Shown here: piece after piece, positions 207 to 60,448 of the stretch | Position numbering within the stretch: the stretch's first letter is position 1 | Layout: each line of letters starts with the position of its first letter | Assembly (NCBI GenBank): GCA_020057185.1 | Contig: JAGVGK010000005.1 | Span: 1 to 63,841, forward strand | From: Minisyncoccota bacterium | Lineage (GTDB): Bacteria; Patescibacteriota; Minisyncoccia; Phycocordibacterales; JACOZG01 | Reading direction: 5' to 3' | DNA length: 63,841 bases | Program-made: the position numbers and the translations under genes | Notes under the pieces: generated by a model | The model's input: the letters and a program-made list of their open reading frames with translations, nothing else | Database searches by the model: none | What the model was told of the DNA's origin: nothing

Positions 207-2573
207 CTATTGATTTAACCCGTGGCACTTTTTATATTTTTTGCCGGAACCGCAGGGGCAGGGGTCATTGCGCCCGACTTTTTTGATATTGCCGGCTGAT
301 GATGGCGCGACTAGATTAATTATTGGATTACGCAAGGTCGAACCTTGCGTTGCTAGCTGCTTCACTGCCGTGGCCACATCGTCCGCCATGGTCGCTTCCA
401 TTTGTTTGAAAAGTTGCAATCCCTCTCGTTTATATTCCACCAACGGATCGCGCTGACCATAAGCACGCAAGCGGACACTCTGCTTGAGATAATCCATCGC
501 TTCGAGATGATCCACCCACAGTCGATCAATCGCTTGGAGTGTAATTTGCCGATCCGGACTATCGCTAAAAAGAATGGCCTGCCGGCGACCGTACATAATC
601 ACCCGCTGATAATTCAAAACCGTATCATATTCGAGCAACTGCCGACGGGAGTCGAAGTTGAAACCTTCGATCTTGGCTTGCGCACTTTCAATCGCGCGCG
701 CCACCAAACGATTCTCAATCGGCTGATCATCCGGCACCCCGAGCCGGCGCATCATGGATTTAACTTTATCAGAGACAAACACTCGCGCCAAACTATCATC
801 GAAGGAAATAAAAAATTGCGTCGTGCCCGGATCGCCCTGCCGGCCGGACCGACCCCGAAGTTGATTATCAATCCGACGCGCCTCATGACGCTCGGTGCCT
901 AAAACAAAAAGTCCACCGAGACGGCGCACTTCGTCGAGCTCGGTTTCTGTCGCCTTCGCTCCGCCCAACTTGATGTCTACGCCACGACCAGCCAAGTTCG
1001 TGGCAATCACCACGCTCCCCTTCCGCCCCGCTTCAGCAATGATGGCGCCTTCTTCTTCATGATTCTTGGCGTTCAAGAGACGATGGGGCACACCTTCACG
1101 TGTGAGATAAGCCGAGACCAATTCGTTTTTATCAATCGACACGGTGCCGACGAGAACGGGCTGACCCAATTGATGAAGTTCCTTCAATCGTCGCGCCACG
1201 GCCACAAATTTCCCCGCTTCGGTTTGGAAGACTAAATCTGTGAGATCAGTTCGTTGGCTTGGACGATTAGTCGGCACCGCCACCACCTCGAGACCATAGA
1301 CTTTTCGAAACTCCTCGGCGGAAGTTAAGGCCGTGCCGGTCATACCCGCGAGCTTCCCGTAAAGCTTGAAATAATTTTGAAGTGTCACGCTGGCGTAAGT
1401 TCGAGATTCGTCTTTCGTCGCGACACCCTCCTTCGCTTCAATCGCTTGATGTAAACCATCAGACCACCGGCGACCGGGCTGAAGCCGACCGGTGAATTCG
1501 TCCACGATAATCACTTCGCCACCTTTAACCACATAATCATGATCGCGGTGGAAAAGCGCTTTGGCGCGCAACGCCGTCTCGAGGTGGTGAACATATTTAA
1601 TTCCTAAATCAGTATAAAGATTATCCACTTTCAATGATTTTTCGGTGCGGGCAATTCCTTCTTCTGTCACGCTAATTGTCTTCAATTTCTCATCGACCGT
1701 ATAATCCGTCACTGGTTCGTAATTATTAACGAGTTTAGCGAAAATTTGGTACAAACTATCCGAAGCGGCGACCGGCGCCGAAATAATAAGCGGGGTGCGC
1801 GCTTCGTCAATCAAGACCGAATCCACTTCATCCACGATGGCAAAGTGATGTTTGGGCCTGGCGGGCAGAATAATTTGCGAGACTTGGTCAGTTTGATAAG
1901 CTAGATTGTCACGAAGATAATCAAAACCGAATTCGTTGTTCGTGCCATAAGTGATGTCGGCTTCATAGGCTTCGCGCCGAGTGCACGGTTTTAGAAATTC
2001 ATGAAAAACTTGATAACCGCCACTCTGATCGCGCGCGGGATCAACTTCGCTGTGTGCCGAATCATAACGATAAGCCGTCTCGTGATTGATCACGCCGACC
2101 GATAAACCGAGCGCATCATAAATTTGTCCCATCCACACCGCATCCCGGCGCGCCAAGTAATCATTAACAGTGACCACATGCACCCCGCGCGCCGATAGAG
2201 CATTGAGATAAGCCGTGAGCGTTGTGACTAAAGTTTTCCCTTCACCCGTTTTCATCTCGGCAATTTTCCCTTGGTGCAAAATTATTCCGCCGAGCAATTG
2301 AACATCGAAATGTCTCTGCTTGAGCGTCCGCTTGGCGGACTCGCGCACCAGCGCGAAAGCGTGAGGCAATAAATCGTCGAGGGTCTCGCCCGCCTTGCCG
2401 TCGGGCAGGTCCGTCTCTAAACGAGCCCGTAATTTAGCCGTTTCCGCCTTAAGTTCCAAGTCAGAGAGACTGGCAAAACGGGGTTCTAATTCATTGATCT
2501 TAATCACTGTTGGTTCAAGTGATTTCAAGTAGCGGTCATTCCCCGTCCCGAAAATTTTTCCAATAAGTGACAT
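207..2573 (-). CDS. secA: Preprotein translocase ATPase SecA
   Basis: Motor motifs MKTGEGKTLV, DEVDSVLIDEARTPLIIS and TNLAGRGVDIKLGG; C-terminal zinc finger CPCGSGKKYKKCHG. ATG at 2573 (MSLIGKIFG) preferred over the GTG at 2591. Confidence 0.97.
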   Translation of the reverse strand: MSLIGKIFGTGNDRYLKSLEPTVIKINELEPRFASLSDLELKAETAKLRARLETDLPDGKAGETLDDLLPHAFALVRESAKRTLKQRHFDVQLLGGIILHQGKIAEMKTGEGKTLVTTLTAYLNALSARGVHVVTVNDYLARRDAVWMGQIYDALGLSVGVINHETAYRYDSAHSEVDPARDQSGGYQVFHEFLKPCTRREAYEADITYGTNNEFGFDYLRDNLAYQTDQVSQIILPARPKHHFAIVDEVDSVLIDEARTPLIISAPVAASDSLYQIFAKLVNNYEPVTDYTVDEKLKTISVTEEGIARTEKSLKVDNLYTDLGIKYVHHLETALRAKALFHRDHDYVVKGGEVIIVDEFTGRLQPGRRWSDGLHQAIEAKEGVATKDESRTYASVTLQNYFKLYGKLAGMTGTALTSAEEFRKVYGLEVVAVPTNRPSQRTDLTDLVFQTEAGKFVAVARRLKELHQLGQPVLVGTVSIDKNELVSAYLTREGVPHRLLNAKNHEEEGAIIAEAGRKGSVVIATNLAGRGVDIKLGGAKATETELDEVRRLGGLFVLGTERHEARRIDNQLRGRSGRQGDPGTTQFFISFDDSLARVFVSDKVKSMMRRLGVPDDQPIENRLVARAIESAQAKIEGFNFDSRRQLLEYDTVLNYQRVIMYGRRQAILFSDSPDRQITLQAIDRLWVDHLEAMDYLKQSVRLRAYGQRDPLVEYKREGLQLFKQMEATMADDVATAVKQLATQGSTLRNPIINLVAPSSAGNIKKVGRNDPCPCGSGKKYKKCHGLNQ

Positions 2574-2581
2574 AAGGTAAA

Positions 2582-2590
2582 ATCTTAGCA
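2582..2590 (-). promoter_or_regulatory. Extended -10 element TGCTAAGAT, 8 nt upstream of the secA ATG (near-leaderless)
   Basis: Reverse complement of atcttagca. Lies directly after the T-run of the upstream terminator; no Shine-Dalgarno sequence present. Confidence 0.45.
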
Positions 2591-2591
2591 C

Positions 2592-7047: not shown

Positions 7048-9129
7048 CTACTTGATGATCCCCTGTTTTCTCAAATTAGACATGAAATCTGATAGGGGCT
7101 GTTTAAATTCCGGGTGAGCGACTACAGCCTTCTGCCATAACACCAACAGGGCATTAGACTGATTAATCGTTCCATAGGCTTGAACTAATCTTTCGTCTAA
7201 AAGAGAGACCGGATCGTCTTTCGCGCCGGCGCTTAGAAGCTCCGCGGCGAGTGGTAATTTATTATCATAGATTGCGCCAAGCGCATAAATTTTCCTAGCT
7301 TCGGCAAAAGTGGGTTCGAGCTCGTAGGCCTCACGGAAAAGTGCCAGCGCGTCAGCATACTTCTTTTGATTAATATAAAAACCACCGAGCTCAAAGAGAA
7401 TGGCTTGTTTATGGGGCGACAAACGGCGAGCTTCGATAAGTTCTTTTTCGGCTTCGGCTAACAAACCAATCCGAGAGAAGAAGGAACCGGCGAAGAGACG
7501 ATAGCGCGCGTTCTCGGGTTCGCGTTTGATCGTTTCCAAAATCTGATCGTGAGCCAGAATCAGAATTCCGTTGCGTGTTTCAGCCGGCACGGACTGATCT
7601 TGCCCCACATTAAGCGCCGAGTTAATCAGATGTTCGCTGGCTTCGGTCGAGGCAAAAGTCTGGTAAGCGAAGACTTGTTTGAAACTTTCCAGTTGCTTAT
7701 CCGGATATTTCTGCCAATTTAATGCTTCGATCAGCGTGCGACTAGCTAACCACGGTTTGATGTTAATCCAGTACATGGTCGGCACAAACAAAATAACGAT
7801 GATTAGGGGCGGTAAAAAAGCGGGCACTTTATTTTTGATTAATTTTAAATTACTGGCTGGTAAGAAATTCAGGTTTTTCCCAGTCGAAACAAAGTGCAGA
7901 TAGCCGAGCATCGCCAAGAAAAGCAAATAACTAATTAGATTATCGAAAACAAAAATATTATGAATAAAATAAGCAACCAAAAGCCCAGAAAATAACGCCC
8001 GCTCGATAACAGTAAAACTATTTTTCTTCCACCAGAGATAATAAAAAGCGATGACAAAAAGCGAGAGATAGGCCAAAAGACCTAGCGCGCCCGCGCTGAT
8101 TAACCAGTCGAAGATGACATTGTGCGAACGGTCGAACCACTGTTCTTGGCTGTACATCGCCGGATCATAGTACTTGTTGAAAACCAAAATATAATTCTCC
8201 GGTCCCCAACCGAGAAGCGGCCGTTCTTTGAACCCCTGCCAGCTCATATTCCAGATCATCAATCGCGATTTAGTGGTCTGCTCGGTGAGCGAGATTGAAG
8301 CAAAGCGTTCCAAGACCGGGCTAGACTTAACGAAAGCGCTATCTTTATTTAACCAAAAAACCCCCCCGAGAATCACGGCGCCAAGCAAAACGCCCAACGA
8401 GATTTTTCGCGCCCAGCGATGTGACCGACCAAAAATCGCGATCAAAATGGCGGTGACAATTAAACCACCCACGAGACCGAGCAAAGTACCTCGCGTCCCG
8501 GTGCGATAAAGCACAATCAATTGAAATAAAATAAGCGGTAAATAAATATAAGCAATCGGATTTTGTCGGTAATGCTTGAGCCACAGCCAAGCCGTTAAGA
8601 AAATATGCACCAACATATATACCGCCAGATAAGTCGGATTGCCAAAAGTGCCGTCAATCCGACTCCCGCCCTTGGTCAAAGCCATAATCCCAGCAATGAC
8701 GCTGATCACGATCGAAAGATTCAAAAAATAAAACCAGAGCTTCTCTTTTTTCAAAACCGAAATCAGAACTACAAAATAAGCACCGAGATGAAGAAAATTC
8801 ACCAAACCTTCCATTCGCTCGAAATTACTCCAGAAACTGCGATAAGGATTCGCCCCCCAAGCCGTCGCGAGAGAAATCACTAGAAGGAGCGCCCCCATCG
8901 CGATCAAGATCCATGACTTTTTAGCTTGCCCGCCGATCAGGCGGGGGCGATAATTAGGATCGCGAAGTGCGAGAATAATCCAGAGTGCGAGAATAATCTC
9001 CGTCAACACCCGAAAAAAGAACCCCTTGCCGGTGATAAACGGAAAAAATAGCGAGGTGGAGACAAGAAGGGGGGTGAGGGTCAATAATAATAACCCCGCG
9101 ATAATCCCCCACCGCAAATAATTATTCAT
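7048..9129 (-). CDS. O-antigen ligase/polymerase-like (Wzy_C) membrane protein with C-terminal TPR repeats
   Basis: 693 aa with at least 10 TM helices. Loop YRTGTRGTLLGLVGG. C-terminal TPR-like repeats (…ADALALFREAYELEP…). Confidence 0.75.
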   Translation of the reverse strand: MNNYLRWGIIAGLLLLTLTPLLVSTSLFFPFITGKGFFFRVLTEIILALWIILALRDPNYRPRLIGGQAKKSWILIAMGALLLVISLATAWGANPYRSFWSNFERMEGLVNFLHLGAYFVVLISVLKKEKLWFYFLNLSIVISVIAGIMALTKGGSRIDGTFGNPTYLAVYMLVHIFLTAWLWLKHYRQNPIAYIYLPLILFQLIVLYRTGTRGTLLGLVGGLIVTAILIAIFGRSHRWARKISLGVLLGAVILGGVFWLNKDSAFVKSSPVLERFASISLTEQTTKSRLMIWNMSWQGFKERPLLGWGPENYILVFNKYYDPAMYSQEQWFDRSHNVIFDWLISAGALGLLAYLSLFVIAFYYLWWKKNSFTVIERALFSGLLVAYFIHNIFVFDNLISYLLFLAMLGYLHFVSTGKNLNFLPASNLKLIKNKVPAFLPPLIIVILFVPTMYWINIKPWLASRTLIEALNWQKYPDKQLESFKQVFAYQTFASTEASEHLINSALNVGQDQSVPAETRNGILILAHDQILETIKREPENARYRLFAGSFFSRIGLLAEAEKELIEARRLSPHKQAILFELGGFYINQKKYADALALFREAYELEPTFAEARKIYALGAIYDNKLPLAAELLSAGAKDDPVSLLDERLVQAYGTINQSNALLVLWQKAVVAHPEFKQPLSDFMSNLRKQGIIK

Positions 9130-39821: not shown

Positions 39822-40820
39822 TTATAAAAAATATTTATACAAACTATTAGCTAAATTGACTAAACTATGTTTTTGCGCGAAACCTAAAAGATTTAGACGG
39901 AGATCGTTTTTTTGTACATCATCCATATTCAATAAATTTTTAATTTCCCCCTTCACCGCGATTTCTCTAGCGGGTTGACTTTCAGACCAAATAACTAGAG
40001 CCCCACAAGCCATCGCTTCCAATATCGTTTTATCCATACTGCCAGTCGGAGTTAGATTAACATAAATTTCGTGGGAGCGATAGATATCGAGTGTCTCTGA
40101 ATGCCGTACAGCGGGGCATAAGGACAAGCGACCAGAGCGCGTCAGTGGTTCAGCTAATCGATGTAATTCTCGCTCATAGAGAATATCTGTCTCGAAAATT
40201 GGTGAACCAACGATTGTAGCGGTGAAATCAATTTTCTGTTTCTGCAATTCCAATAACGCGTTTATCAGAATATCTAATCGTTTGATTGGTGAGATGCGAC
40301 CGAGCGCTAAAATCGATCGCGGAATCTTTTTCACGTTTGGATCTGGTCGAAAAAAATCCGTATCAATCCCCACCGGCATTATTTTCGTTTTCTTAAATCG
40401 CGCGGTGAAAGATTGCGGCGAAGTACAAAATACTTTATTAGAAACAAGAATGGCAATTCTCGTGAGAAATCCTCCGAATGCATGATTCCGCCATAAGTAT
40501 ATTTTCTTACCCCACAATTTCCAAAATTTCCACCCAAGCAGAACATACTCCTGATTCATGTGAACAAACACGGCGTCATAGTTTTTTCGTTCTTGCCAGA
40601 TGTATTTATAGAAACGCCACACATACTTGACCTTTGATTGGCCAGATTCCTTGCCTAAAGATAAAACCCCAACATTAGGTGGTAAATTATACTTCCCCTT
40701 CTCCAAACAAATTACGATTATCTTCTCGCAATGTTTAGCGAATTCTTCAATCCAGCGACAGAAAAAACCGAGGATTGGATCATTTCGGTCAACTTTTTGA
40801 GTGATAATTAAAAGTTTCAT
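39822..40820 (-). CDS. Glycosyltransferase family 4-like
   Basis: TGSMDKTILEAMACGALVI. Its ATG overlaps the abiEii stop (ATGA). Confidence 0.75.
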   Translation of the reverse strand: MKLLIITQKVDRNDPILGFFCRWIEEFAKHCEKIIVICLEKGKYNLPPNVGVLSLGKESGQSKVKYVWRFYKYIWQERKNYDAVFVHMNQEYVLLGWKFWKLWGKKIYLWRNHAFGGFLTRIAILVSNKVFCTSPQSFTARFKKTKIMPVGIDTDFFRPDPNVKKIPRSILALGRISPIKRLDILINALLELQKQKIDFTATIVGSPIFETDILYERELHRLAEPLTRSGRLSLCPAVRHSETLDIYRSHEIYVNLTPTGSMDKTILEAMACGALVIWSESQPAREIAVKGEIKNLLNMDDVQKNDLRLNLLGFAQKHSLVNLANSLYKYFL

Positions 40821-41560
40821 TGCTCCAATCTCCTTATCTCGTCTTTTATTAATCCAAGGACTTCTCTTTTTAATATTTTGCGTATGGCAACAAATTTATC
40901 ATAAGGCAAAAGTGAATTGAGATCCTCGGAAATGATTTTTTCCGTTACTTTTTCATCTACAAAATCGATAAGGTTAGAAAGAAATTCTTTCGTTCCCTTT
41001 CCGGTTTTTTGTTTTATAACACTGGCATCATACTCAAAACCGTTTAGAAAAAAATAGTGGACATCGTAGATATCCCGGCCGGCAATAGTTCCAGTTTTTT
41101 TAAACCTATCCATCACGGCAATAAGTTTGTGAGCAAACATCGTTTCTTTGGTTTGGCAAATCAAAATACGATCTATTTCCAAAAATCTCACCGGCGCGTA
41201 TTTGCTCGTAGAAAAGAGCGGGAAAGAAGCGTCTATTTTCAAAATTTTCCTTTCTGAACCGATAGCATCATATTTTAAAAAATATTGAATCCCGTTTTTA
41301 CTTTTATCTTTTATGAAAAGATTTAACTTCACAAACAGACGCTCAAGCGCTTGACATGTTTTTCCAATGTCTTTTTCGGCGCCAGCATAATCAAAATCTA
41401 AATCAACTGAAAACCGATTCAACCAACCAAGCATTGAGGCGCAGGTTCCACCTTTAAAAAATAAAACACTGGTGAGATACTGATTATCAGCAATCGCTTC
41501 AAGAATTCGATAAAGCCACGCCTTATGAATAGCCTCTTTTCTGTTTGGTACGATCATCAT
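40817..41560 (-). CDS. abiEii: Nucleotidyltransferase AbiEii/AbiGii-family toxin (DUF1814)
   Basis: FFKGGTCASML..NRFSVDLDFDY. Confidence 0.85.
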   Translation of the reverse strand: MMIVPNRKEAIHKAWLYRILEAIADNQYLTSVLFFKGGTCASMLGWLNRFSVDLDFDYAGAEKDIGKTCQALERLFVKLNLFIKDKSKNGIQYFLKYDAIGSERKILKIDASFPLFSTSKYAPVRFLEIDRILICQTKETMFAHKLIAVMDRFKKTGTIAGRDIYDVHYFFLNGFEYDASVIKQKTGKGTKEFLSNLIDFVDEKVTEKIISEDLNSLLPYDKFVAIRKILKREVLGLIKDEIRRLEQ

Positions 41561-41566
41561 TTTTTT

Positions 41567-42160
41567 TTAGGATTTGATACCCTTTATAATATATCCCACC
41601 GCATCGGCAATTTCCCTGACTTTGCCCCACTGAATTAAAGTTGAATCTCCAGCATCAAAATATTTTCGCGGATTAAAATAAAGCATATCGGCGACCGCGC
41701 GGGGGATAGAAGCGATACGAACACCATCTTTTATCTCTATCCCCGCATCGTTAAAAAGAAACTCCTCACGCATCTTTCTTGATCGATATTGTATACCGGC
41801 GATAGAAAAATGCCTGGAAAATTGACTGACGAGGGTAACCGCCAGCGGCGACTGATTCAAAATACCTTTTTGATAAAGCACCGACTCACAAGAGACATAG
41901 GCTGGTGAATGGATAGCTTTGACACCCAAAAGAAAAGGATTTATTTCACTCGCTTTCTTAACTGCATACAACCCCTTGTAGACGCGGTGAATAAGCCCGT
42001 CTGCCACATATCTTGAAAGCGTCTTATACAAAGTATTTTCATTGGGAATCTCCCACAAATTCGCCACATCGCTGGCATGAAAAACTATCTCACCGAGAGT
42101 AGCAATAGAAGCCAGGCGCTCACCCCCCGATCCCCTAATGTCTTTATATTTTATACTCAT
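41567..42160 (-). CDS. abiEi: AbiEi-family antitoxin / transcriptional regulator
   Basis: N-terminal wHTH-like LYKTLSRYVADGLIHRVYKGLYAV. Ends 6 nt upstream of abiEii. Confidence 0.75.
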   Translation of the reverse strand: MSIKYKDIRGSGGERLASIATLGEIVFHASDVANLWEIPNENTLYKTLSRYVADGLIHRVYKGLYAVKKASEINPFLLGVKAIHSPAYVSCESVLYQKGILNQSPLAVTLVSQFSRHFSIAGIQYRSRKMREEFLFNDAGIEIKDGVRIASIPRAVADMLYFNPRKYFDAGDSTLIQWGKVREIADAVGYIIKGIKS

Positions 42161-42206: not shown

Positions 42207-43202
42207 TCATTGTAATAATTCAATAACACCCTTGGCAACATTGGCAAAATCTTGCCCGATTATTCGCACCCCAACTTCTCTCGCCACACCGACATCGGTC
42301 GAAACAATTTTACAACCTGCCGCTTGGGTTTCGACTAAAGTCATGCCATAACCCTCATACAGTGAAGTGACAAGAAACAGATCGCAAGTTTTATAATAAG
42401 AATACAGTGTTTCTTGATTGACCCAATTTTCAAAAATAATACTAGCTTCTAGCTTATAGCTTATAGCTTTTAGCTTCAAAATTTTTTCTTCTGGTCCGGA
42501 GCCAACAATTATCAACCCTATTCTCCTATTCGCGCGAATTAGAGAAGACACTGCTTCGATTGCCAAATCAATATTTTTTTCTTTAGTTAAACGCGAAGCC
42601 ATTAAAATTATTTTATCAAATTGCTGATATTTTTTATGCAAGTCTACCGTGATTGGTGTATTTTTAATTTTCTCTATGTCTACAAAAATCGGCCGTATTT
42701 CAATTTCAGCTTTTATCCGCCAGCTGGCGGATTTTAGAAAATCAGCAATTCGTTGGCTAACAACACGAATTTTGTCGGCTTTAGGTAATAAGAATTTGGC
42801 GAGCAGAAACCGAATTTTATTCTTGAACGATTCCTGCCAAAAATACGGACTGCCAATATCGGTATGGATTTGAAGTTCAAGTTGGGCTAATTCCCGACGC
42901 GAGATTAACCAACCTGTTAATCCTGATTCGAATGGATCTTGGCAAGTAACCAAATCAATTTTTAGTTTAAGTTTCTTAACTAATTTTACCGCATCAAAAA
43001 TGTAAAATAATTTTAATCTGGAATTAGTGGGATAAATCCAAAGTTTAGGTGAAATTTGAGCAGAGACAAGACCGAGAGATTTTTGGGCAAATACTATTAT
43101 ATGTGTCTCGTCAACCAAGTTTGCATAGCCAATTATCCGCTCGCGTACCGCGCTCGCGGGTTGAAACAAATTTCGATCCGAGCCGATACTTAAAATTTTC
43201 AT
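42207..43202 (-). CDS. Glycosyltransferase family 4 (carries a heptamer-array insert)
   Basis: SLYEGYGMTLVETQAAGCKIVSTDVG. Confidence 0.85.
   Translation of the reverse strand: MKILSIGSDRNLFQPASAVRERIIGYANLVDETHIIVFAQKSLGLVSAQISPKLWIYPTNSRLKLFYIFDAVKLVKKLKLKIDLVTCQDPFESGLTGWLISRRELAQLELQIHTDIGSPYFWQESFKNKIRFLLAKFLLPKADKIRVVSQRIADFLKSASWRIKAEIEIRPIFVDIEKIKNTPITVDLHKKYQQFDKIILMASRLTKEKNIDLAIEAVSSLIRANRRIGLIIVGSGPEEKILKLKAISYKLEASIIFENWVNQETLYSYYKTCDLFLVTSLYEGYGMTLVETQAAGCKIVSTDVGVAREVGVRIIGQDFANVAKGVIELLQ
42443..42477. repeat. Five tandem heptamers: tagcttc tagctta tagctta tagcttt tagcttc, in-frame in the GT4 gene
   Basis: Read directly. Encodes LKLKAISYKLEA on the minus strand. Confidence 0.95.
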
Positions 43203-44176
43203 ATCTTAATGACTAAATCTAAAAATTCCCGCGCTAGCTCTGACCAAGAATGTTCAAAATTAAAATTAGTGATTTTTTTAATTTGTGTCTCATAATTATT
43301 TTTATCACTTAACCACAACAATTTTCCTTCAACATCGGCCAGATTAAGCGGGTTAATGTATATGCCAATTTCACCCAAACGATCTTGTATACCATTTTCT
43401 TCGGTCAAAATAAAAGGCTTATTACAACGAATCGCGTCCAAAACAATGTTCGGACTGATTTCGGACACCGACGGGACAATGAGACCATAACAACTTCTGA
43501 TTTTTTCTGTTAATTTCTCCGGCGACCATTGACCAATTTCAAAAACAAAATTTAAAGGTTTGAGAATATCAAAATTTTTCAATTTTAAATTGCGTCCAGC
43601 TGATATAAAAACTTTTTGTTCTGGCTCGTTGGAAACTTCTTTTCTACCATAATAATTTTCGATAATTTTTGTTTTGGATAAATCTAAATTATATGGTTTC
43701 GCCCAAATTTGCCTCTGCCAATCAGTGCTAAAAACTATTAAACTAGACTGTTTCAAAATCCAACGAGTTAGTTTGAAAATAAGACGCTCTTTGAAATTGA
43801 AATTCGGAATTTCAGTTTGATAGAAATTGCGTAATAAAACAAGTTTACCGGTTCGTTCAACATAGTTTTCCCACAAGAAATCCCCGCCGGTGCGAATAAT
43901 CGTTTTTTTGCCCAATAGTCGACCAGCCATAACAGATGGCAAACCGACACTGAAAGTGTCGAGAGTTAAACACCAATCAGCCCAATGCAAAGTGGGGAAG
44001 ATTTTAAAAAAATAAAAGATATGTCGTAAACCACTCGGCCAGTGTTTAACATCCGAAAATTTAATCACTCGAACCTCATGGCCAAGTTTCTGAAATTCTC
44101 GTTCCAAATTAAATGCGTACTGCGCCGGACCACCAATGTCCGGTGGATAAATACCAGTGGCGATTAGGATTTTCAT
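43199..44176 (-). CDS. GT-B fold glycosyltransferase
   Basis: MKILIATGIYPPDIGGPAQY N-terminus and a degenerate E-x7-E region. Confidence 0.7.
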   Translation of the reverse strand: MKILIATGIYPPDIGGPAQYAFNLEREFQKLGHEVRVIKFSDVKHWPSGLRHIFYFFKIFPTLHWADWCLTLDTFSVGLPSVMAGRLLGKKTIIRTGGDFLWENYVERTGKLVLLRNFYQTEIPNFNFKERLIFKLTRWILKQSSLIVFSTDWQRQIWAKPYNLDLSKTKIIENYYGRKEVSNEPEQKVFISAGRNLKLKNFDILKPLNFVFEIGQWSPEKLTEKIRSCYGLIVPSVSEISPNIVLDAIRCNKPFILTEENGIQDRLGEIGIYINPLNLADVEGKLLWLSDKNNYETQIKKITNFNFEHSWSELAREFLDLVIKI

Positions 44177-45264
44177 AGTGATAGAAGACTTCTCATTTGT
44201 TTAGCAATAATTTCCCAATTGTACTTATTCAGAACCATTTGACGAGCTTCGTTAATAACTTGCTTCACCTTGTCGTGATTGGTCGGATCCAAAATATATT
44301 GCACTTTCTCGGCGACACTTTTGGGATTGTCCGCTTCACAGAACCAGCCCGTGACACCGTCGGTTAGAAAGTCCGGGATCCCCCCTACTGGCGTACCAAC
44401 CACCGGCACGCCCGCCGCCATCGCTTCGAGAAACGAATTACCGAGTCCTTCAGACCGTGAGGGTCGCACAAACACATCGGCTTGAGCGAGATAATTTGAT
44501 ACTTCATTTGGTGGGACATGACCGAGAAATTCAATCCGAGCTTGTAGCTTGTAGCTTGCCTGCCCGACGGCAAGGCGGGTAGCTTGTAGCTTTAAATTTT
44601 TCTCTTCAATCCCACCACCGAGAATCTGAAGTCTTATATTATCCGGCAAAAAACGCATCGCTTCAATTAAAATATCTACGCCATTTTTCTTCACCAATCG
44701 CCCCGTGTGAATAATTACCAGGTTAGCTTTTAGCTTGTAGCTTTTAGCTTGTAGCTTAAATTTATCCAAATCTACCCCATTAGGAATTACCGTAATCGGA
44801 CAGCGTGCCCCCATCGTTCGCGCCCACGCGCCGAGATAATTAGAAATAACTTGGATGTGATCGGCCACTTTAAAAACCCTAAAAATTCTCGGTAAAAGTA
44901 ATCTCAAACGATACGCCCAGCTATTTAGATCATCCCCTTCTTGCAAAGTTAAAAGAAACGGCACAGTTAGAAAACGACGCTTGAAAAGCGCGCCGGCCAT
45001 CCCCGCCTGATTGGCCATAATCGCCCAAATTGCGTCGTAGGGCTTAATTTTATGTCTTCTTGAGGCTTCTCGGTAAGCCCAGAACGGATAAGAATATTTA
45101 GACCAAAAATTTCTAATGTCGGCGTGGATAATTTCAAACTGAAATTCCGGCAATCCTGCCTTGTCGGCAGACAGGCGATCGGTAATCTCTTTCACCGCCA
45201 CTTCGGCTCCGCCGACAAAGGGGAAATAAGCAAGAGAAAAAATTAAGATTCGAGGCGTCGACAT
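44173..45264 (-). CDS. Glycosyltransferase family 4 (carries three repeat-element inserts)
   Basis: SRSEGLGNSFLEAMAAGVPVVGTPVGG. Confidence 0.85.
   Translation of the reverse strand: MSTPRILIFSLAYFPFVGGAEVAVKEITDRLSADKAGLPEFQFEIIHADIRNFWSKYSYPFWAYREASRRHKIKPYDAIWAIMANQAGMAGALFKRRFLTVPFLLTLQEGDDLNSWAYRLRLLLPRIFRVFKVADHIQVISNYLGAWARTMGARCPITVIPNGVDLDKFKLQAKSYKLKANLVIIHTGRLVKKNGVDILIEAMRFLPDNIRLQILGGGIEEKNLKLQATRLAVGQASYKLQARIEFLGHVPPNEVSNYLAQADVFVRPSRSEGLGNSFLEAMAAGVPVVGTPVGGIPDFLTDGVTGWFCEADNPKSVAEKVQYILDPTNHDKVKQVINEARQMVLNKYNWEIIAKQMRSLLSL
44538..44593. repeat. Composite element: 3 heptamer units + a 21-nt palindromic insert + 2 heptamer units
   Basis: gagcttg tagcttg tagcttg [cctgcccgacggcaaggcggg] tagcttg tagcttt. 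Encodes LKLQATRLAVGQASYKLQA. Confidence 0.9.
44724..44758. repeat. Five tandem heptamers: tagcttt tagcttg tagcttt tagcttg tagctta
   Basis: Read directly. Encodes KLQAKSYKLKA. Confidence 0.95.
45155..45176. repeat. 22-nt imperfect palindrome cctgccttgtcggcagacaggc, identical to 53504..53525
   Basis: Exact 22/22 match read by eye. Encodes LSADKAG in the same frame at both sites. Confidence 0.95.
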
Positions 45265-52270: not shown

Positions 52271-52308
52271 CCCCGCCTACATCTGCAAAGTTGTGGCGGG
52301 GATTTTTA
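52271..52308 (+). terminator. Intrinsic terminator between convergent genes
   Basis: CCCCGCC-17 nt-GGCGGGG followed by ATTTTTATT. Confidence 0.7.
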
Positions 52309-53622
52309 TTCCAATTTTTTCACCAGCTTTACAAACTGGGCACCACGGTCGTATTCATTTTTAAATCCGCCAGGTGGCGGACCAAAAGACGCAAACCCCG
52401 GACTTAAAAGTAAAATATCGCCAGTCTTAGCTATTGTTACCCCTAATTCAACCGCCTCTTTTAAATCCTCAACTTCTCTATACTTTAAATTTTTCATTTT
52501 GAGTTTTAAGTTCTTCGTCCCCGTTCCAGGCAATAAAATAATTTCTTTACAATATTTAGGTAAAGTTTTAATTAAAATATCTAACGGCAAATTTTTATCC
52601 GCGCCACCCATGATTAGAATAATATCTTTCTTTTCCCCGCCCAATGCTTCCAACGCCACCTTCAAAGCATCGGGAGTGGTGGAAGTGGTGTCGTTATAAA
52701 TCTTAATCCCCCGCCAAGTGCGGATGGGTTCCAAACGCCCAGCGACTCCAGTGAAATTCTCCACGGTCTGCTTAATCAGTTTTTCCGGAATCTCTAAAAT
52801 TCTAGCGACCGCGACCGCACAAGCCGCATTGATCCGGTTGTGCTCACCCAAGATTTTTAGCTTCCAACTTTTAGGCAACTCTTCAACCTTCTCTCCCCGC
52901 ACTAGATGATCTTCTGGCTTCTGATACTTAAAAATATTTTCTTTATCAGATAAATACTTTTTCATATCACCGTGGTAATAATTAAAGTGATCAGCCATAA
53001 AGTTAGTAAACACCGCAATATCTGGGCTGATTTTTAAATCGCCGAAACCTTGCAACTGCCACGAATCAAGTTCTAAGACCACCCAATCGCCCAATTTAAC
53101 TTTCGGCAACAACGCGAGTGTCGAAACACCCAAAATATTTCCGCCCAGCCACACCTTCCCAACCTGTTTTAAAATTTCATAAATCAAGCTCGTCACTGTC
53201 GTTTTGCCTCTTGTGCCGGTCACACCAATTATTTTCGCGCCCAATGATTGAGCAAATTTTACGAACAACGCCGTGCTCATCATCACCGGAATTTTATTTT
53301 TCTTAGCTTCGGCGATATAAGGCGAATCAAGTGGCACACCCGCAGCTTTGATAATCAAATCGCGGTGCTGAAAATCTTGAAGTCGGTGTTTACCCAGAAC
53401 ATAAGTAATAGCTTTTAGGTTATAGCTTCTAGCTTTTAGCTTCTTTAGCGAAGGAGACAAATCTTTGGCTGATTTCAAATCAGTCACAATAAGTTCAGCA
53501 CCACCTGCCTTGTCGGCAGACAGGCACTCCGCTAAAAACTTGGTATCCCCCACCCCGCGACCGAGAAGCCCGAGCCCCATCAGTGTAATTTTCTTCCCTC
53601 GAAAATAATCTCGATAATCCAT
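52306..53622 (-). CDS. murD: UDP-N-acetylmuramoylalanine--D-glutamate ligase (carries two repeat-element inserts)
   Basis: ITLMGLGLLGRG and GVTGTRGKTTVT; Mur ligase layout. Confidence 0.9.
   Translation of the reverse strand: MDYRDYFRGKKITLMGLGLLGRGVGDTKFLAECLSADKAGGAELIVTDLKSAKDLSPSLKKLKARSYNLKAITYVLGKHRLQDFQHRDLIIKAAGVPLDSPYIAEAKKNKIPVMMSTALFVKFAQSLGAKIIGVTGTRGKTTVTSLIYEILKQVGKVWLGGNILGVSTLALLPKVKLGDWVVLELDSWQLQGFGDLKISPDIAVFTNFMADHFNYYHGDMKKYLSDKENIFKYQKPEDHLVRGEKVEELPKSWKLKILGEHNRINAACAVAVARILEIPEKLIKQTVENFTGVAGRLEPIRTWRGIKIYNDTTSTTPDALKVALEALGGEKKDIILIMGGADKNLPLDILIKTLPKYCKEIILLPGTGTKNLKLKMKNLKYREVEDLKEAVELGVTIAKTGDILLLSPGFASFGPPPGGFKNEYDRGAQFVKLVKKLE
53409..53443. repeat. Five tandem heptamers: tagcttt taggtta tagcttc tagcttt tagcttc, in-frame in murD
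   Basis: Read directly. Encodes KLKARSYNLKA. Confidence 0.95.
53504..53525. repeat. 22-nt palindrome cctgccttgtcggcagacaggc in murD, identical to 45155..45176
   Basis: Encodes LSADKAG between AEC and GAELIVTD of the MurD Rossmann region. Confidence 0.95.
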
Positions 53623-56504: not shown

Positions 56505-57839
56505 CTACCCCGTCCAATAATAGGCCATAATACTGAAGTCGACCAAATCAACCTTGCCGTCGCCACTCAAAATCGCTTTTTCTCGCGGAATAAAGTCGGC
56601 AGTCAATGGTCGGTGATACCAATAAGCGGCAATCGAAAAATCAATCAGATTAACGCGACAATCACTGTTGAGATCACCGCGCAACGGGCAACCTTGGTTT
56701 GGTTCAGCCAAAACTGTCGTGGTGCCAACGCGAAAATTGACCACCGCGCCAAATGGACTAATCTCGTTCAGCACCGTGGATTTCGATTTCGTGGTGTGAT
56801 CGCCCTTCTCAATCAGCGTGGTGTCGAAATTATAAAGATAGAGACCGCCGACACCGGCTAAGGTTCTGACAAAAATTTCTTGATTGGAATTGACCGCAAT
56901 CGTCACCGTGCTACTGCCGACCGTCTGACCGAAAATCGCAATGTTATCGCCGTGCGCCACTTCCCGTTTATCCACATCGATCGTCGGTGACAAGAAGATC
57001 CCACTGATATTCGTCATCGCGCCCTTGGTTAGGTAAACCGGAAAAGTGAAAAGCGTCGACCGACGACCTTGATTATCTTCACCATAAACCGCGAAGAGAT
57101 ATTCTCCCGCGGATAAACCAGTCAGCGCGACGGCAAATTTCGCATCCGGACCGGCAATCGTGGTAATCGCAATTTGTCCATCTTTGAGAATTGTCACTTT
57201 GCTTAAAGGATAACCGTAGCCCGAGAGATTAACGCCAGTCGCCGTCACGGTTTCTCCTCCTCCACCACCACCCCCTCCTCCGCCACCACCACCCGAAGAT
57301 ACTGGCGTTGCCGACACTTCGCTCGAAGTGGCAATGGTATTGCTCAACGCATCTTCCGGCCGAATCACAAAATAATACGGCGTACCATTAGTCAAACTAC
57401 TGCGCGTCGTAGAAGTGACATTGCCTAAACTGGTATAACTATATGGCCCGCCGGCGACCGTGGCTTGACCAACATTGTATCCGCCCACCGTCCAACCGAG
57501 CGACGCCGTCACCGCCGACCATGAGAGCGCCACCGATCCGTCGCCGGCGGTCGCCGAGACCACCGGCGTCGCGACGACTGGAAAAAAGAGCCAGGCGCTT
57601 TGCAGACCGAAACCGATCGCCGTGCTGGTACCTAAACCCATCTCGCCGAGCGAGCCGAAAAGTTGGAAATCAGTGGAAGTCGAAAACTGCGCCGGCGCCA
57701 ACACCGGATCAAGGACGCGAAAACTTGATGAAGTGTATTCATCAGCTTGCGCCAAAGAAACAATGCCAAGCACTGCCACTAAATAAAACAGAGCCAGAAA
57801 CTTTTTATTGGAGTTTGTTATCGGTTTTATACTTCTCAA
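56505..57839 (-). CDS. Secreted FN3/Ig-like protein with a poly-Gly linker and C-terminal dockerin
   Basis: Signal peptide, a G13 run, and two dockerin repeats: GDLNSDCRVNLIDFSIAAYW and SGDGKVDLVDFSIMAYYW. Confidence 0.75.
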   Translation of the reverse strand: MRSIKPITNSNKKFLALFYLVAVLGIVSLAQADEYTSSSFRVLDPVLAPAQFSTSTDFQLFGSLGEMGLGTSTAIGFGLQSAWLFFPVVATPVVSATAGDGSVALSWSAVTASLGWTVGGYNVGQATVAGGPYSYTSLGNVTSTTRSSLTNGTPYYFVIRPEDALSNTIATSSEVSATPVSSGGGGGGGGGGGGGETVTATGVNLSGYGYPLSKVTILKDGQIAITTIAGPDAKFAVALTGLSAGEYLFAVYGEDNQGRRSTLFTFPVYLTKGAMTNISGIFLSPTIDVDKREVAHGDNIAIFGQTVGSSTVTIAVNSNQEIFVRTLAGVGGLYLYNFDTTLIEKGDHTTKSKSTVLNEISPFGAVVNFRVGTTTVLAEPNQGCPLRGDLNSDCRVNLIDFSIAAYWYHRPLTADFIPREKAILSGDGKVDLVDFSIMAYYWTG

Positions 57840-58257
57840 TGCCCTTAACCACTTGCGAATCGGCCTTTAGACTTTCAATGAAAAGAATTTGGTCACGATT
57901 AATTTCCATCCGATCAGCCGGCCCATGTAATTCCGAACCGAGCTTAATTAAACTAACATTCGGATTGGGTTGACTGGGCTGAAGTGGCTGACTGACTTGA
58001 AGATAGAAAATGTCGGTCAAAATAGCATAATTGTCATTTCGTTCCGCCAATTTACCGAAATAAACTTGATTGTTGGTGAGAAAAACCGCTTGGTAATCCG
58101 CCGACGCACTAGTAAACAAACTTGCGCCTTTCTGACCACCAAACAATTTCCAACCGAGAACCACCGCGATCACAATCAAGATGATAACAATCCAAAAAGA
58201 AATAGCAGACTTTTTTCGGGGCGCTAACTCTTCAAAATTATTCGTAGCTTTTTCCAT
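57805..58257 (-). CDS. Membrane-anchored hypothetical protein
   Basis: One N-terminal TM helix (ISFWIVIILIVIAVVLGW). Confidence 0.55.
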   Translation of the reverse strand: MEKATNNFEELAPRKKSAISFWIVIILIVIAVVLGWKLFGGQKGASLFTSASADYQAVFLTNNQVYFGKLAERNDNYAILTDIFYLQVSQPLQPSQPNPNVSLIKLGSELHGPADRMEINRDQILFIESLKADSQVVKGIEKYKTDNKLQ

Positions 58258-58266
58258 ATATATTAA

Positions 58267-58647
58267 TTAATTATTATTAGTAATCGGGGCAATCTCAATA
58301 ATCTTGTCTTGAACCGGATCATAGAGAATCGCTTTCTGGGCTTGATTATACACTAAAACCTTATCCCCCGCTTTAGCATTAGCGAAAAAGGGTTGATCCT
58401 TCAATTTCTCCGGATCGGCGACGGTCGCCAGCGTCGGCTCTTCATCAGTTGGCAAGACGACCAACCGACCGACTTTGGCGACCACCTCCTTCAATTCGCT
58501 CGCCGCCACCGACGCCAGCTCCGCTTGGGGATTGGCTTTGATCCGACCGACTTCGGTGTAGAAATAACCCGCGGTCACCAAACTTGCCGCGGTCACAATT
58601 ATAAGAATTAAATTAACTGGTCGATTCATATGCGGTGAGTATAGCAA
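58267..58647 (-). CDS. Membrane-anchored hypothetical protein
   Basis: One N-terminal TM helix. The start may be the internal MNRPV. Confidence 0.55.
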   Translation of the reverse strand: MLYSPHMNRPVNLILIIVTAASLVTAGYFYTEVGRIKANPQAELASVAASELKEVVAKVGRLVVLPTDEEPTLATVADPEKLKDQPFFANAKAGDKVLVYNQAQKAILYDPVQDKIIEIAPITNNN

Positions 58648-58659
58648 ACTATCTTATTT

Positions 58660-59214
58660 CTAATCAAACTGCCAAGTGGATAAGATTTGCGCCAGCCAAG
58701 TATCGAGCGAAGCATAAGTCGTTATTTCATAAAGAAAACTATTTTTAATGAACCAGACTTCCCGTGTCTCATTCTTCACGACATCTTGACTATAAAACAT
58801 TGTCGCGCGCTGACCGCCGATAATAATATCCGTCGGCTCTCTCATCACGCCCGACGGCACATCCTTCTTGAACTGTTGCGAAGTAATTTGACTCTCGGTG
58901 TACGGCACGATAAAAATTTGGAAACCATTCTTTCCCGTCGCATCTTCAAAGGTAATTGTCGAGGCGCTACTGCCGTCATCATATTCTCTCACTAATAAAT
59001 CTTGTGGATAGGTGAGGGAAAAACGAAACAACAGATTTTTATACAAGCGAGTGGTGTCGGACACCGGCGCGGTCGGTGGAATCATCACAATTACCGAATT
59101 GTCGACCGCCGGCGGAGAAGTTTTTCTTGCAGGGAACAAAAAATAGCCGAGTAAACCCAATATAATCACTCCGCCGATTATCCACACTTTATGTTCTTGA
59201 CACCATTTACTCAT
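58660..59214 (-). CDS. Membrane-anchored hypothetical protein
   Basis: N-terminal TM helix. The domain starting YKNLLFRFSLTYPQDL resembles that of 3005..3658. Confidence 0.55.
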   Translation of the reverse strand: MSKWCQEHKVWIIGGVIILGLLGYFLFPARKTSPPAVDNSVIVMIPPTAPVSDTTRLYKNLLFRFSLTYPQDLLVREYDDGSSASTITFEDATGKNGFQIFIVPYTESQITSQQFKKDVPSGVMREPTDIIIGGQRATMFYSQDVVKNETREVWFIKNSFLYEITTYASLDTWLAQILSTWQFD

Positions 59215-59365
59215 ATGCTAGATTGTAATCACTTATTGCCGTTAGGCACCCGAGGACCCCGCAAGGGGTCCGTTTGGTGTAAAAATTCAATCTCTGTTTT
59301 AAGTTTGTGCCACTTTTCGAAATCTCGTTGCATACAGGTTTATTATTAAAAACCTTAATAGTTAA

Positions 59366-60448
59366 TTACTGTAACCTCGTCCCCCCGCGGAGGCGAACTC
59401 CACCGCGGAGACGCACGGCTCGGGCATTAGCCGTGACCGAGGGGATATAAGTGATGACAATCACCCCTTGCTTGCCCACTCCTTCAAGAAGTTTTGTCGC
59501 CCCCCCAGCGCCACCACCACCGCCGCCATAACTACCGCCAGCGCCGCCGCCTTTGCCGGCGCTACCACCCCCGCCACCGCCACCAGAACCGGCGAGGGCG
59601 CCAAATTCAATTGCCGTCCATTCAATCGTCCCAGCGCCGCCGGCGGCGCCGGCAAGGGAAGTGCCACCCCCACCACCGCCACCCAAAGTTCCAGCTGACT
59701 CCGCCGCGCCACCACCTTGCCCATTGAAATTATTCCCGCCCGCGCCACCGCTAAGACCATGAAATCCAGATGTCCCACCACCGCCACCACCGCCACCACC
59801 ACCTTCGACACCGCCGGGTTCAGTCGTCGCATTTCCCCCATTGCCACCGGTACCATAAAGACCGCCCGCGCCACCACCACCGCCACTACCATTGGTATCG
59901 CTAACAGTATCTATATTTCCACCCGTCCCGCCATTAAAACAACCACTGCAACTGGCCGGTATTCCAGCCGAGACCAACCCGCCGGCGCCATTAGCCGGAT
60001 CGGATATTAAACCACCACTGCCTCCTTGAGCACAAACCGACATTGTGGAAGCGCACACAAAAGAAGAACCTGAAGTTCGGTTAAACCAGGTATCACCGCC
60101 TTTTTTACCATTACTTCCGCTAGCAACAACCACTGTGGTAGAACCAACTTGATAGGTCACTGATCCCCCAGCTGTCAACCCTGTGAGATTGAAGATAACC
60201 GCATATGCCCCGCCGCCGCCACCGCCACCACCATTAATGTCGCCACCGGTGGTACCGCTATCACCGCCACCGCCACCGGCGCCAATCGCTTCGATGGTGT
60301 TAACCGCCGACCAATCGCTGACCACCGTCCAAGTGCCGGGATCGCCGGAGGTGAGAAAAATTCGCTTAAACGCATTGGCGGGATGGGGGAAGGCGAGCAG
60401 AGCAAATAAAACGAGACAGATACTTTTCCACAGTTTGGGGGTTGACAT
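59366..60448 (-). CDS. Secreted glycine-rich protein
   Basis: Signal peptide (MSTPKLWKSICLVLFALLAFPHPANA), many GGGGGG runs, and C-terminal VRLRGGVRLRGGTRLQ. Confidence 0.7.
   Translation of the reverse strand: MSTPKLWKSICLVLFALLAFPHPANAFKRIFLTSGDPGTWTVVSDWSAVNTIEAIGAGGGGGDSGTTGGDINGGGGGGGGAYAVIFNLTGLTAGGSVTYQVGSTTVVVASGSNGKKGGDTWFNRTSGSSFVCASTMSVCAQGGSGGLISDPANGAGGLVSAGIPASCSGCFNGGTGGNIDTVSDTNGSGGGGGAGGLYGTGGNGGNATTEPGGVEGGGGGGGGGGTSGFHGLSGGAGGNNFNGQGGGAAESAGTLGGGGGGGTSLAGAAGGAGTIEWTAIEFGALAGSGGGGGGGSAGKGGGAGGSYGGGGGGAGGATKLLEGVGKQGVIVITYIPSVTANARAVRLRGGVRLRGGTRLQ

Follow-up and report, generated by a model that had tools for sequence, protein, structure and literature searches.

A 21-nucleotide hairpin interrupting a heptamer array in a Patescibacteria glycosyltransferase gene is probably a mobile insert

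The stretch of DNA analysed here, referred to below as the window, comprises all 63,841 nucleotides (nt) at positions 1 to 63,841 of contig JAGVGK010000005.1 (assembly GCA_020057185.1), from a Minisyncoccota bacterium of the Patescibacteriota. A glycosyltransferase (GT) gene on the minus strand of the window carries at 44538-44593 a composite of two different repeats, a tandem array of five 7-nt units and a 21-nt hairpin that lies within this array. Orthologous genes contain the same arrays with and without the hairpin, related hairpins are found in many other bacteria, and the 21 nt are probably a discrete mobile insert that favours such arrays as targets. The composite and its host gene are made up as follows.

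44538..44558, minus strand: three heptamer units (CAAGCTA-type on the coding strand), the 3' portion of the split array in translation (ASYKLQA)
44559..44579, plus strand: 21-nt hairpin micro-element of type B, CCTGCCCGACGGCAAGGCGGG, antisense to the host gene and read as TRLAVGQ, with G at position -1
44580..44593, minus strand: two heptamer units, the 5' portion of the split array in translation (KLQA)
44173..45264, minus strand: the host gene, intact, encoding a GT4 family glycosyltransferase of 363 amino acids (aa) with matches to Pfam PF00534 (7e-37) and PF13439 (Glycos_transf_1 and Glyco_transf_4)

On the plus strand the composite reads GAGCTTG TAGCTTG TAGCTTG (44538-44558), then CCTGCCCGACGGCAAGGCGGG (44559-44579), then TAGCTTG TAGCTTT (44580-44593). 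The coding strand gives AAG CTA CAA GCT A|CC CGC CTT GCC GTC GGG CAG G|CA AGC TAC AAG CTA CAA GCT, which is translated in frame as K L Q A T R L A V G Q A S Y K L Q A within the context KNLKLQATRLAVGQASYKLQARIEF. The coordinates, the total of five units (three plus two) and the read-through as TRLAVGQ reported in a first-pass annotation of this DNA all agree with the sequence. That annotation described the units as TAGCTTG, which holds for the inner ones, while the first (GAGCTTG) and the last (TAGCTTT) are each one base off. It also called the 21-mer palindromic; the segment does form a hairpin, but it is not a true palindrome, having a CCTG 5' tail and a stem, CCCG.C/G.CGGG, that is interrupted internally by a single mismatch.

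The GT has its closest homologs in Candidatus Vogelbacteria and other Patescibacteria, also known as the candidate phyla radiation (CPR). The AlphaFold2 model of the protein has a mean pLDDT (the per-residue confidence score) of 90.5, and the three segments affected by repeats (blocks 31-40, 171-180 and 231-240) are coil or helix ends where the confidence is locally lower. The model thus predicts that the insert sites in the GT are structurally permissive.

Evidence for the hairpin as a separate unit comes from comparison with orthologs in other retrieved genome or contig stretches, which are given L-numbers, with P-numbers for their proteins. Removal of exactly 21 nt from the composite leaves AAGCTAC x4 plus AAGCT in frame, and the L256 ortholog (P0022) has this perfect array, uninterrupted, at the site of 44538-44593, in agreement with the earlier proposal that the insert had split a pre-existing array. 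The L001 ortholog (P0002), which is 75% identical to the window GT, likewise has an empty five-unit array at this site. It carries the same hairpin, with 1 nt different, at the same unit boundary in the other array of the gene, where the window is empty, and the alignments of the two genes contain clean reciprocal 21-nt gaps at both array sites. The filled arrays, at hot spot 3 in the window and at hot spot 2 in L001, agree at 55 of 56 nt and contain AAGCTAC units only; their reciprocal empty counterparts have diverged, with mixtures of AAGCTAA and AAGCTAC and a CACCTAG unit. The more distant L002 ortholog (P0045) contains the hairpin reversed relative to both the heptamers and the gene (KLKAKSY-LPDDKAG-KLKA), an orientation that implies an independent event.

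Filled and empty sites are also found outside arrays. A copy in the SecA gene (2389-2409) adds exactly 7 residues relative to SecA of E. coli and other solved SecA structures, and these residues are also missing from most of 120 CPR SecA N-termini, taken from homologs of no more than 65% identity. Another copy within the GT gene, at 45155, adds 7 aa relative to 29 of 30 aligned GT orthologs and has a clean empty site in L257. The insert is thus missing from most GT and most SecA orthologs. The hairpin behaves as an exact 21-nt insertion or deletion unit without target duplication: no general target-site duplication was found in the flanks of the listed copies, and a GAGAC repeat around the SecA copy is out of register.

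Approximately 8 of the 120 other CPR SecA proteins (P0121-P0240) have short insertions at the same point, after RARLE, for example LSADGAGG and several forms of the type (S/N)PP.G.G. Judging from these sequences, the point after RARLE would be either a recurrent landing place or an unusually permissive site.

The window contains four hairpin copies in total, all intragenic and three of them outside arrays. Scans of the window were compared with shuffled sequence, for which 0.00-0.01 matches were expected. The degenerate pattern CCTGYCYGMCGRCAAGGCRGG gave four exact matches and one weak match (0.01 expected), CCTGCCCGACGGCAAGGCGGG has an exact second copy on the opposite strand at 2389-2409 (0.00 expected), and the 22-mer at 45155 is found again exactly at 53504-53525. 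The three copies other than that of the composite, in the SecA, MurD and GT genes, each add exactly 7 residues to the protein. These copies, together with the uninterrupted arrays of the window, are listed below.

2389..2409, minus strand: type B hairpin copy in the SecA gene (open reading frame (ORF) 207..2591), read as LPDGKAG
45155..45175, minus strand: type A hairpin copy, CCTGTCTGCCGACAAGGCAGG on the coding strand, in the GT gene, read as LSADKAG; the "22-mer at 45155" of the first-pass annotation
53504..53524, minus strand: type A hairpin copy in the MurD gene (ORF 52306..53622), read as LSADKAG
44723..44757, minus strand: unbroken five-unit array in the same GT gene (KLQAKSYKLKA), the empty counterpart of the filled array of L001
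42442..42476, minus strand: five-unit array within another GT4 gene (ORF 42207..43202), read as KLKAISYKLEA
53410..53443, minus strand: five-unit array in the MurD gene (KLKARSYNLKA), with no gap there relative to the MurD structure 3lk7 in the PDB

The three uninterrupted arrays at 42442-42476, 44723-44757 and approximately 53410-53443 thus have the same total of five units as the composite, as had also been claimed. All arrays of the window lie on one strand, contain five units and are translated in a single register, K-L-x-A-x-S-Y-K-L-x-A. The proposal that the 21-mer of the composite is a diverged and oppositely oriented relative of the 22-mer at 45155 holds as well: it is identical to the reverse complement of the latter at 16 of 21 positions in an ungapped comparison, both fit the degenerate pattern, and the canonical sequence of the wider family, CCTGCCTGCCGGCAAGGCAGG, is intermediate between them.

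A further structure lies at 8918-8945 in a membrane protein gene (ORF 7048..9129, minus strand), where a lone TAGCTTG unit is followed by a hairpin, CCCGCC-GATCA-GGCGGG, with PRLIGGQAKK as the translation. This structure departs from the degenerate pattern at 3 positions and may be related to the 21-mer, as a variant or in decayed form.

To describe the family we scanned a 596-Gb collection, with one genome per species, using the degenerate pattern, and obtained at least 117 stretches. Membership was defined as 21 nt with at least 16 of 21 positions identical to CCTGCCTGCCGGCAAGGCAGG; the copy at 44559 satisfies this definition and matches the degenerate pattern exactly. The identical 21-mer CCTGCCTGCCGGCAAGGCAGG is present in 77 of 117 stretches among the matches listed, and we estimate that this single sequence would be expected by chance less than once in the whole 596-Gb collection. 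The canonical form consists of a 4-nt CCTG 5' tail, a 6-bp stem (CCTGCC/GGCAGG) and a 5-nt loop (GGCAA), with a DNA folding energy of -6.8 kcal/mol (z = -2.1), compared to -4.8 kcal/mol for type B. Type A has two differences from the canonical form and type B has three (T7C, C9A and A19G). As T7C and A19G are the two sides of one canonical stem pair they form a compensatory change, while C9A adds the internal mismatch. A purine stands at position -1 of 105 of 117 copies among the matches listed, and positions -2 to -12 are near uniform.

The hosts span at least eight phyla, comprising many lineages of Patescibacteria, Bacteroidota (including the cultured Flavobacteriia Arenibacter, Maribacter and Autumnicola), Ignavibacteria, uncultured Gammaproteobacteria, Planctomycetota, Omnitrophota, Spirochaetes and Nitrospirae. 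The type A form of the window is identical to copies in Bacteroidota, and type B is found elsewhere, among the matches listed, only in the Patescibacteria L019, L063 and L067. Singleton variants in high-GC genomes (L004, L016, L026, L090, L108 and L111) are probably chance matches. Searches of 7.3 Gb of PLSDB plasmids gave no complete copy, only partial chance matches, and Rfam gave no family match in the window or in 18 element-bearing loci. Carriage by phages was considered and rejected, as IMG/VR yielded only 14 matches. A cyanobacterial origin or HIP1 context was also rejected, as GCGATCGC occurs only 3 times in the window and is not enriched.

Two of the IMG/VR contigs (L247, 632-673, and L252, 2003-2044) contain the 21-mer directly followed by its own reverse complement, as a head-to-head doublet. 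In L007 (932-1000) a hairpin copy has a truncated tRNA 5' fragment, GCCGACGTAGCTCAGTGGTAGA, right before it and lies upstream of a tRNA-Thr gene that is intact; a tRNA origin was considered for the family and rejected, as this fragment is adjacent but the tRNA-Thr is intact and separate.

The 21-mer contains no stop codon in any of its six frames. Since it also adds exactly seven codons it can survive inside essential genes, where it is translated. Further host genes include that of the leucyl-tRNA synthetase LeuRS, which has two copies in one gene, and those of the isoleucyl-tRNA synthetase IleRS, TrmD and GT proteins, all with the copies in frame. Long ORFs contain 53 of 118 copies elsewhere among the matches listed (45%), compared to 77% of random positions. 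The unambiguous coding copies among the matches listed comprise 25 in sense and 12 in antisense orientation, and a single frame, LPAGKAG, is used by 22 of the 25 sense copies. This frame bias strongly indicates that selection acts on the peptide encoded by the insert, and the element appears, from these reading frames, to be translated and filtered by selection.

Orthologs of the GT (P0007, P0024, P0037, P0045 and others) contain further small in-frame modules at permissive sites, namely DPQWQGESLPF(G/S)KD, HLDTRCPSSPEALGHLVSKC and PQWDTPRGVP. The HLDTRCPSSPEALGHLVSKC module would be palindromic at the DNA level, judging from the peptide. The recurrence of these modules points to a possible wider set of mini-inserts in CPR genes.

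The first-pass annotation had also proposed that one repeat prefers the other as a target. To assess this nesting we excised the element from each of 115 copies in other genomes and determined the lag identity of the joined flanks, compared with control positions in the same loci. A lag-7 identity of at least 0.7, in phase, was found for 9 of the 115 copies among the matches listed (7.8%), compared to 0.02% of controls, with no enrichment in the joined flanks at lags from 3 to 12 other than 7. The host heptamers vary from genome to genome and include GAAATTG, AAATTCG, GATTTCG, GACTTTG, GAAAGTG, GAAATTA and AAGGTCA, so that the association is with heptamer periodicity and not with one sequence. 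The preference is also seen in approximately 170 kb of CPR DNA from relatives of the window, where 3 of 12 copies lie within AAGCTAN arrays that cover approximately 0.3% of the bases (approximately 0.035 copies expected). These observations support a preference of the hairpin for heptamer arrays. The loop of a pre-existing inverted repeat is a second preferred context: a perfect flanking stem of at least 6 bp is present around 11 of 115 copies among the matches listed (9.6%), compared to 1.2% of controls, and in L056 and L114 a copy is inserted in the loop of another copy. Targeting of hairpin apices was considered as the cause of array nesting and rejected, as the host heptamers GACTTTG, GATTTCG and AAGGTCA lack a palindromic core.

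In Bacteroidota and Omnitrophota (L014, L072, L077, L058 and L051; L069, L046, L104 and L025) the 21-mer often splits or abuts other small repeats, of the forms CTTCGACAAG|CTCAGGGTGAC and GTCATTGCGAG...GAAGCAATC.

The position of the hairpin within arrays also recurs. Read in the orientation of the hairpin, the insert comes after unit three of five in the window, L001, L002, L011, L029, L032 and L044, which is 7 of approximately 12 clear array-nested copies, and this placement is independent of both the heptamer sequence and the direction of the host gene. The other nested layouts are 2+2, 2+3, 3+3, 3+4 and 1+8. Period-7 arrays are themselves common in element-bearing DNA, with approximately 57 arrays of at least 4 units in the 855 kb of L004-L120 compared to 4-9 for periods 5, 6, 8 and 9, and their copy numbers cluster at approximately 4-5.5. 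In the window, L001, L255 and L256 the arrays have approximately five units each, in frame, and no length variants are seen among them.

A five-unit array is 35 nt long, which is not a multiple of three, and, compared with array-less orthologs or solved homologs, five-unit coding arrays leave the net length unchanged. In this respect arrays do not resemble simple insertions, and the sequential insertion events that the first-pass annotation had deduced from the nesting can be upheld for the 21-mer but not for the array. The array-less ortholog in L257 still has a faint periodicity of 7 nt at this place, and these comparisons suggest that arrays may arise or decay in situ. GT hot spot 2 contains a forward AAGCTAN array in the window and a degenerate reverse array (TAGCTTN-like, with the peptide FQLLGSSFQ) in several orthologs, the carriers being L255 10001-11113, L256 10001-11131 and L257 3736-4788.

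Taken with the filled and empty sites, the best account of the composite is that positions 44559-44579 hold a discrete mobile insert of 21 nt that prefers arrays as targets, which we consider likely. A hairpin copy would have entered a pre-existing five-unit heptamer array inside the GT gene, moved by an enzyme that acts in trans and is encoded at another place in the genome. Insertion would take place where DNA is single-stranded for a time or structured, for example in slipped tandem-repeat loops and at hairpin tips, and this would account for the nesting. Within a genome, a filled array may also be copied as a block onto other arrays by gene conversion over short homology. The preferred candidate for the enzyme is a single-strand transposase of the HUH or Y1 type, in the style of insertion sequence (IS) families IS200/IS605 or of the REP-associated tyrosine transposases (RAYT) that act on repetitive extragenic palindromic (REP) sequences, although we propose this class only tentatively and regard it as rather doubtful.

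Several observations weigh against a mobile insert of this kind. All-against-all clustering of 1,879 ORFs from 117 loci revealed no mobilising gene near the copies; the recurrent neighbours belong to common families (propeller regulators, ABC transporters, BNR/T9SS proteins, EF-Tu-like GTPases and aminoacyl-tRNA synthetases). Only the purine at position -1 is conserved, whereas IS200/IS605 elements insert beside a defined tetra- or pentanucleotide. That no such target tetranucleotide is present speaks against a mechanism of the classical IS200/IS605 kind. Approximately 90% of copies lie outside arrays, and none of more than 120 AAGCTAN arrays in 733 kb of metagenome contigs carries the element. 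The 3+2 placement in the hairpin's own orientation is not predicted by simple insertion into any exposed loop. Lastly, near-identical filled arrays together with diverged empty ones fit block copying at least as well as they fit two insertions.

This last point leads to the most serious alternative, in which the 56-nt composite of three units, hairpin and two units itself spreads by block copying between arrays, with the heptamers as homology arms. The composite at 44538-44593 would then not be a separate insertion of the 21-mer, although block copying is compatible with a mobile hairpin as the best explanation for the origin of the first nested copy. The identity of hot spot 3 of the window and hot spot 2 of L001 at 55 of 56 nt, with pure units against diverged reciprocal empty arrays, favours block copying for at least one of the two, on sequence grounds, and the shared unit boundary of the insert in window and L001 agrees with it; since all arrays of the lineage have five units, end-to-end alignment would keep the 3+2 layout. 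Block copying does not, however, explain the L002 hairpin, which is reversed relative to the heptamers and is not a copy of the same composite, nor the nested copies in other phyla, which have unrelated heptamers and require de novo entry, nor the three of four window copies that lie outside arrays. We lean against this alternative, while holding it quite possible. The reverse relationship, in which the hairpin makes the arrays through cycles of insertion and excision with 7-bp target duplications and empty arrays are excision scars, would explain why the same heptamer stands on both flanks and why excision restores the phase, and it is in keeping with the clustering of arrays in element-bearing loci at approximately 4-5 units, the excess of period 7 over periods 5, 6, 8 and 9 and the recurrence of the 3+2 layout with different units. 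Yet copies outside arrays have no 7-bp or other flanking duplication, and coding arrays lack the net length gain that stepwise duplication would give. The element is absent from the 733 kb of metagenome contigs in which AAGCTAN arrays abound, so that arrays exist independently of it; arrays as products of the element were rejected on this ground, and we hold this origin to be very unlikely.

Selection for a cis-acting signal, whether an mRNA hairpin that affects translation pausing or mRNA stability, a protein-binding site or a phase-variation repeat, would fit the location of the composite in GT genes of a surface-polysaccharide cluster, the frameshift that slippage of one unit would cause (7 not being a multiple of 3) and the conservation of the hairpin sequence across phyla. 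The same hairpins and arrays are, however, present in genes for SecA, MurD, aminoacyl-tRNA synthetases and TrmD, where on/off switching is implausible, and the lineage arrays are all of five units, in frame and without length variants. The insert is also missing from most orthologs, it has no Rfam match, and the frame bias indicates selection on the peptide and not on an RNA signal, and we give this reading very little credence. Chance similarity, or local formation of the 21 nt by slippage or hairpin formation, might be entertained for a segment so short and G+C-rich, and some of the non-canonical high-GC matches are probably chance; but its probability for the composite is close to nil given an exact 21-nt second copy in the window where 0.00 are expected, exact copies in three other Patescibacteria genomes (L019, L063 and L067) and near-exact copies within arrays of this kind in L001 and L002. 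A broader and more speculative reading, which we consider unlikely, is that hairpin and five-unit arrays are two products of one hitherto undescribed DNA-writing process shared across phyla, which would overwrite patches of approximately 35 nt with five heptamer copies, without length change, and set the hairpin after the third unit, as read in its own orientation, whatever the heptamer or gene direction. Such writing might be done by a polymerase or reverse transcriptase that repeats its template, or by a recombinase able to measure distance on the array; if true, machinery in CPR, Bacteroidota, Ignavibacteria and others edits essential genes in frame.

As a mobile insert, the hairpin can be compared with several groups of small repeats. 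The small dispersed repeats (SDR) of Nostoc punctiforme and relatives, ascribed to Elhai et al. 2008, are reportedly 21-27 nt long, confined to heterocyst-forming cyanobacteria and divided into eight families (SDR1-8), and their mobility is said to have been recognised from filled and empty orthologous sites. SDRs are also said, again after Elhai et al., to be often nested in other repeats, including tandem heptamers. We know of no description for SDRs of in-frame residence in essential genes, of a frame bias such as that to LPAGKAG or of a 3+2 position. The hairpin resembles SDRs in its length of 21 nt, within the 21-27 nt class, in being dispersed, near-palindromic and without evident coding capacity, and in a mobility that is evident from filled and empty orthologous sites. 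SDRs, compared here by description only, are cyanobacterial, whereas the hairpin family is identical across at least eight non-cyanobacterial phyla. The SDR work of Elhai et al. is cited in PMC5861425.

REP and REPIN elements are mobilised by RAYT transposases of the Y1, HUH type (PMC3116915; PMC3733652), and REPs carry a GTAG or CGTC tag (PMC3733652). Like these elements the hairpin is a short imperfect palindrome (REPs being approximately 20-40 nt) with a conserved 5' tetranucleotide, high copy number and no target duplication, and it presumably shares single-strand movement with them. Its tag, however, is CCTG and neither GTAG nor CGTC. REPs are extragenic, whereas all four window hairpins are intragenic and 53 of 118 copies elsewhere among the matches listed are in long ORFs. 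REPs replicate as inverted doublets beside a RAYT gene; hairpin doublets are rare, being present in the 2 IMG/VR contigs described above, with no RAYT gene among the recurrent neighbours.

The Rickettsia palindromic elements (RPE) attributed to Ogata et al. 2000 are said to be approximately 100-150 bp long and confined to Rickettsia. To our knowledge, they have no preference for tandem heptamers. Like RPEs, the hairpin is a palindromic insert in the frame of protein-coding genes, including essential ones, that is translated as additional peptide in permissive surface regions, but it differs in its length of 21 nt and its spread over at least eight phyla. RPEs are mentioned in an excerpt of PMC1779305. 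[quoted passage not shown] They are a parallel to the arrays and not to the hairpin, as both are short tandem arrays of 7-bp units; the arrays described here differ in their CPR host, their location in protein-coding genes, the fixed number of five units, the single register and the absence of net length change.

Elements of the IS200/IS605 family move by 'peel and paste' single-strand transposition, and have two different hairpin ends and a specific target of 4-5 nt. The 21-mer shares with them hairpin-defined ends and the absence of target duplication, and the insertion of IS200/IS605 into single-stranded DNA offers a parallel to the mechanism proposed above; it differs in being a single hairpin with only a purine at -1 as target. 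Miniature inverted-repeat transposable elements (MITE) have terminal inverted repeats and a target-site duplication, derive from a parent IS and are usually longer than 50 bp, whereas the hairpin has 21 nt, no flanking duplication and no parent IS that could be seen. The arrays are also unlike phase-variable contingency repeats, in which the number of units varies among close relatives and switches the reading frame, as those of the window, L001, L255 and L256 have approximately five units and are in frame. Since it lacks defining features of REP, RPE, MITE and IS200/IS605 elements, the hairpin is best described as a very small mobile palindromic repeat outside any named family. Searches of the searchable literature with the DNA string, its reverse complement and the encoded heptapeptides gave no relevant paper, and nothing specific was found on in-frame palindromic repeats in CPR genomes. 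The broader phenomenon appears to be undescribed, and its mechanism is one that we infer.

At 21 nt the element is among the smallest insertion units reported. It is unusual in being near-identical in at least eight phyla while being translated in housekeeping proteins such as SecA, MurD and aminoacyl-tRNA synthetases, and also in favouring structured DNA (arrays and hairpin loops) to a measurable degree and in its reproducible position in five-unit arrays. Inserts of 7 residues can mislead the alignment of orthologs, the modelling of protein families and the use of phylogenomic markers in CPR genomes, and they can also be used as markers of recent genome change in uncultured lineages. The presence of the family in cultured Flavobacteriia makes the movement of very small non-coding repeats testable in the laboratory.

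Two other features of the window stand apart from the hairpin and the arrays. The region 57250-60290 has dense repeats of the CCACCACC and CCGCCA type, which would encode Gly-rich segments if translated from the minus strand, although no ORF call was made there. At 40817-42160, a gene for an AbiEii-type toxin and its partner gene lie within the glycosyltransferase cluster, and this synteny is kept in L001 and L257.

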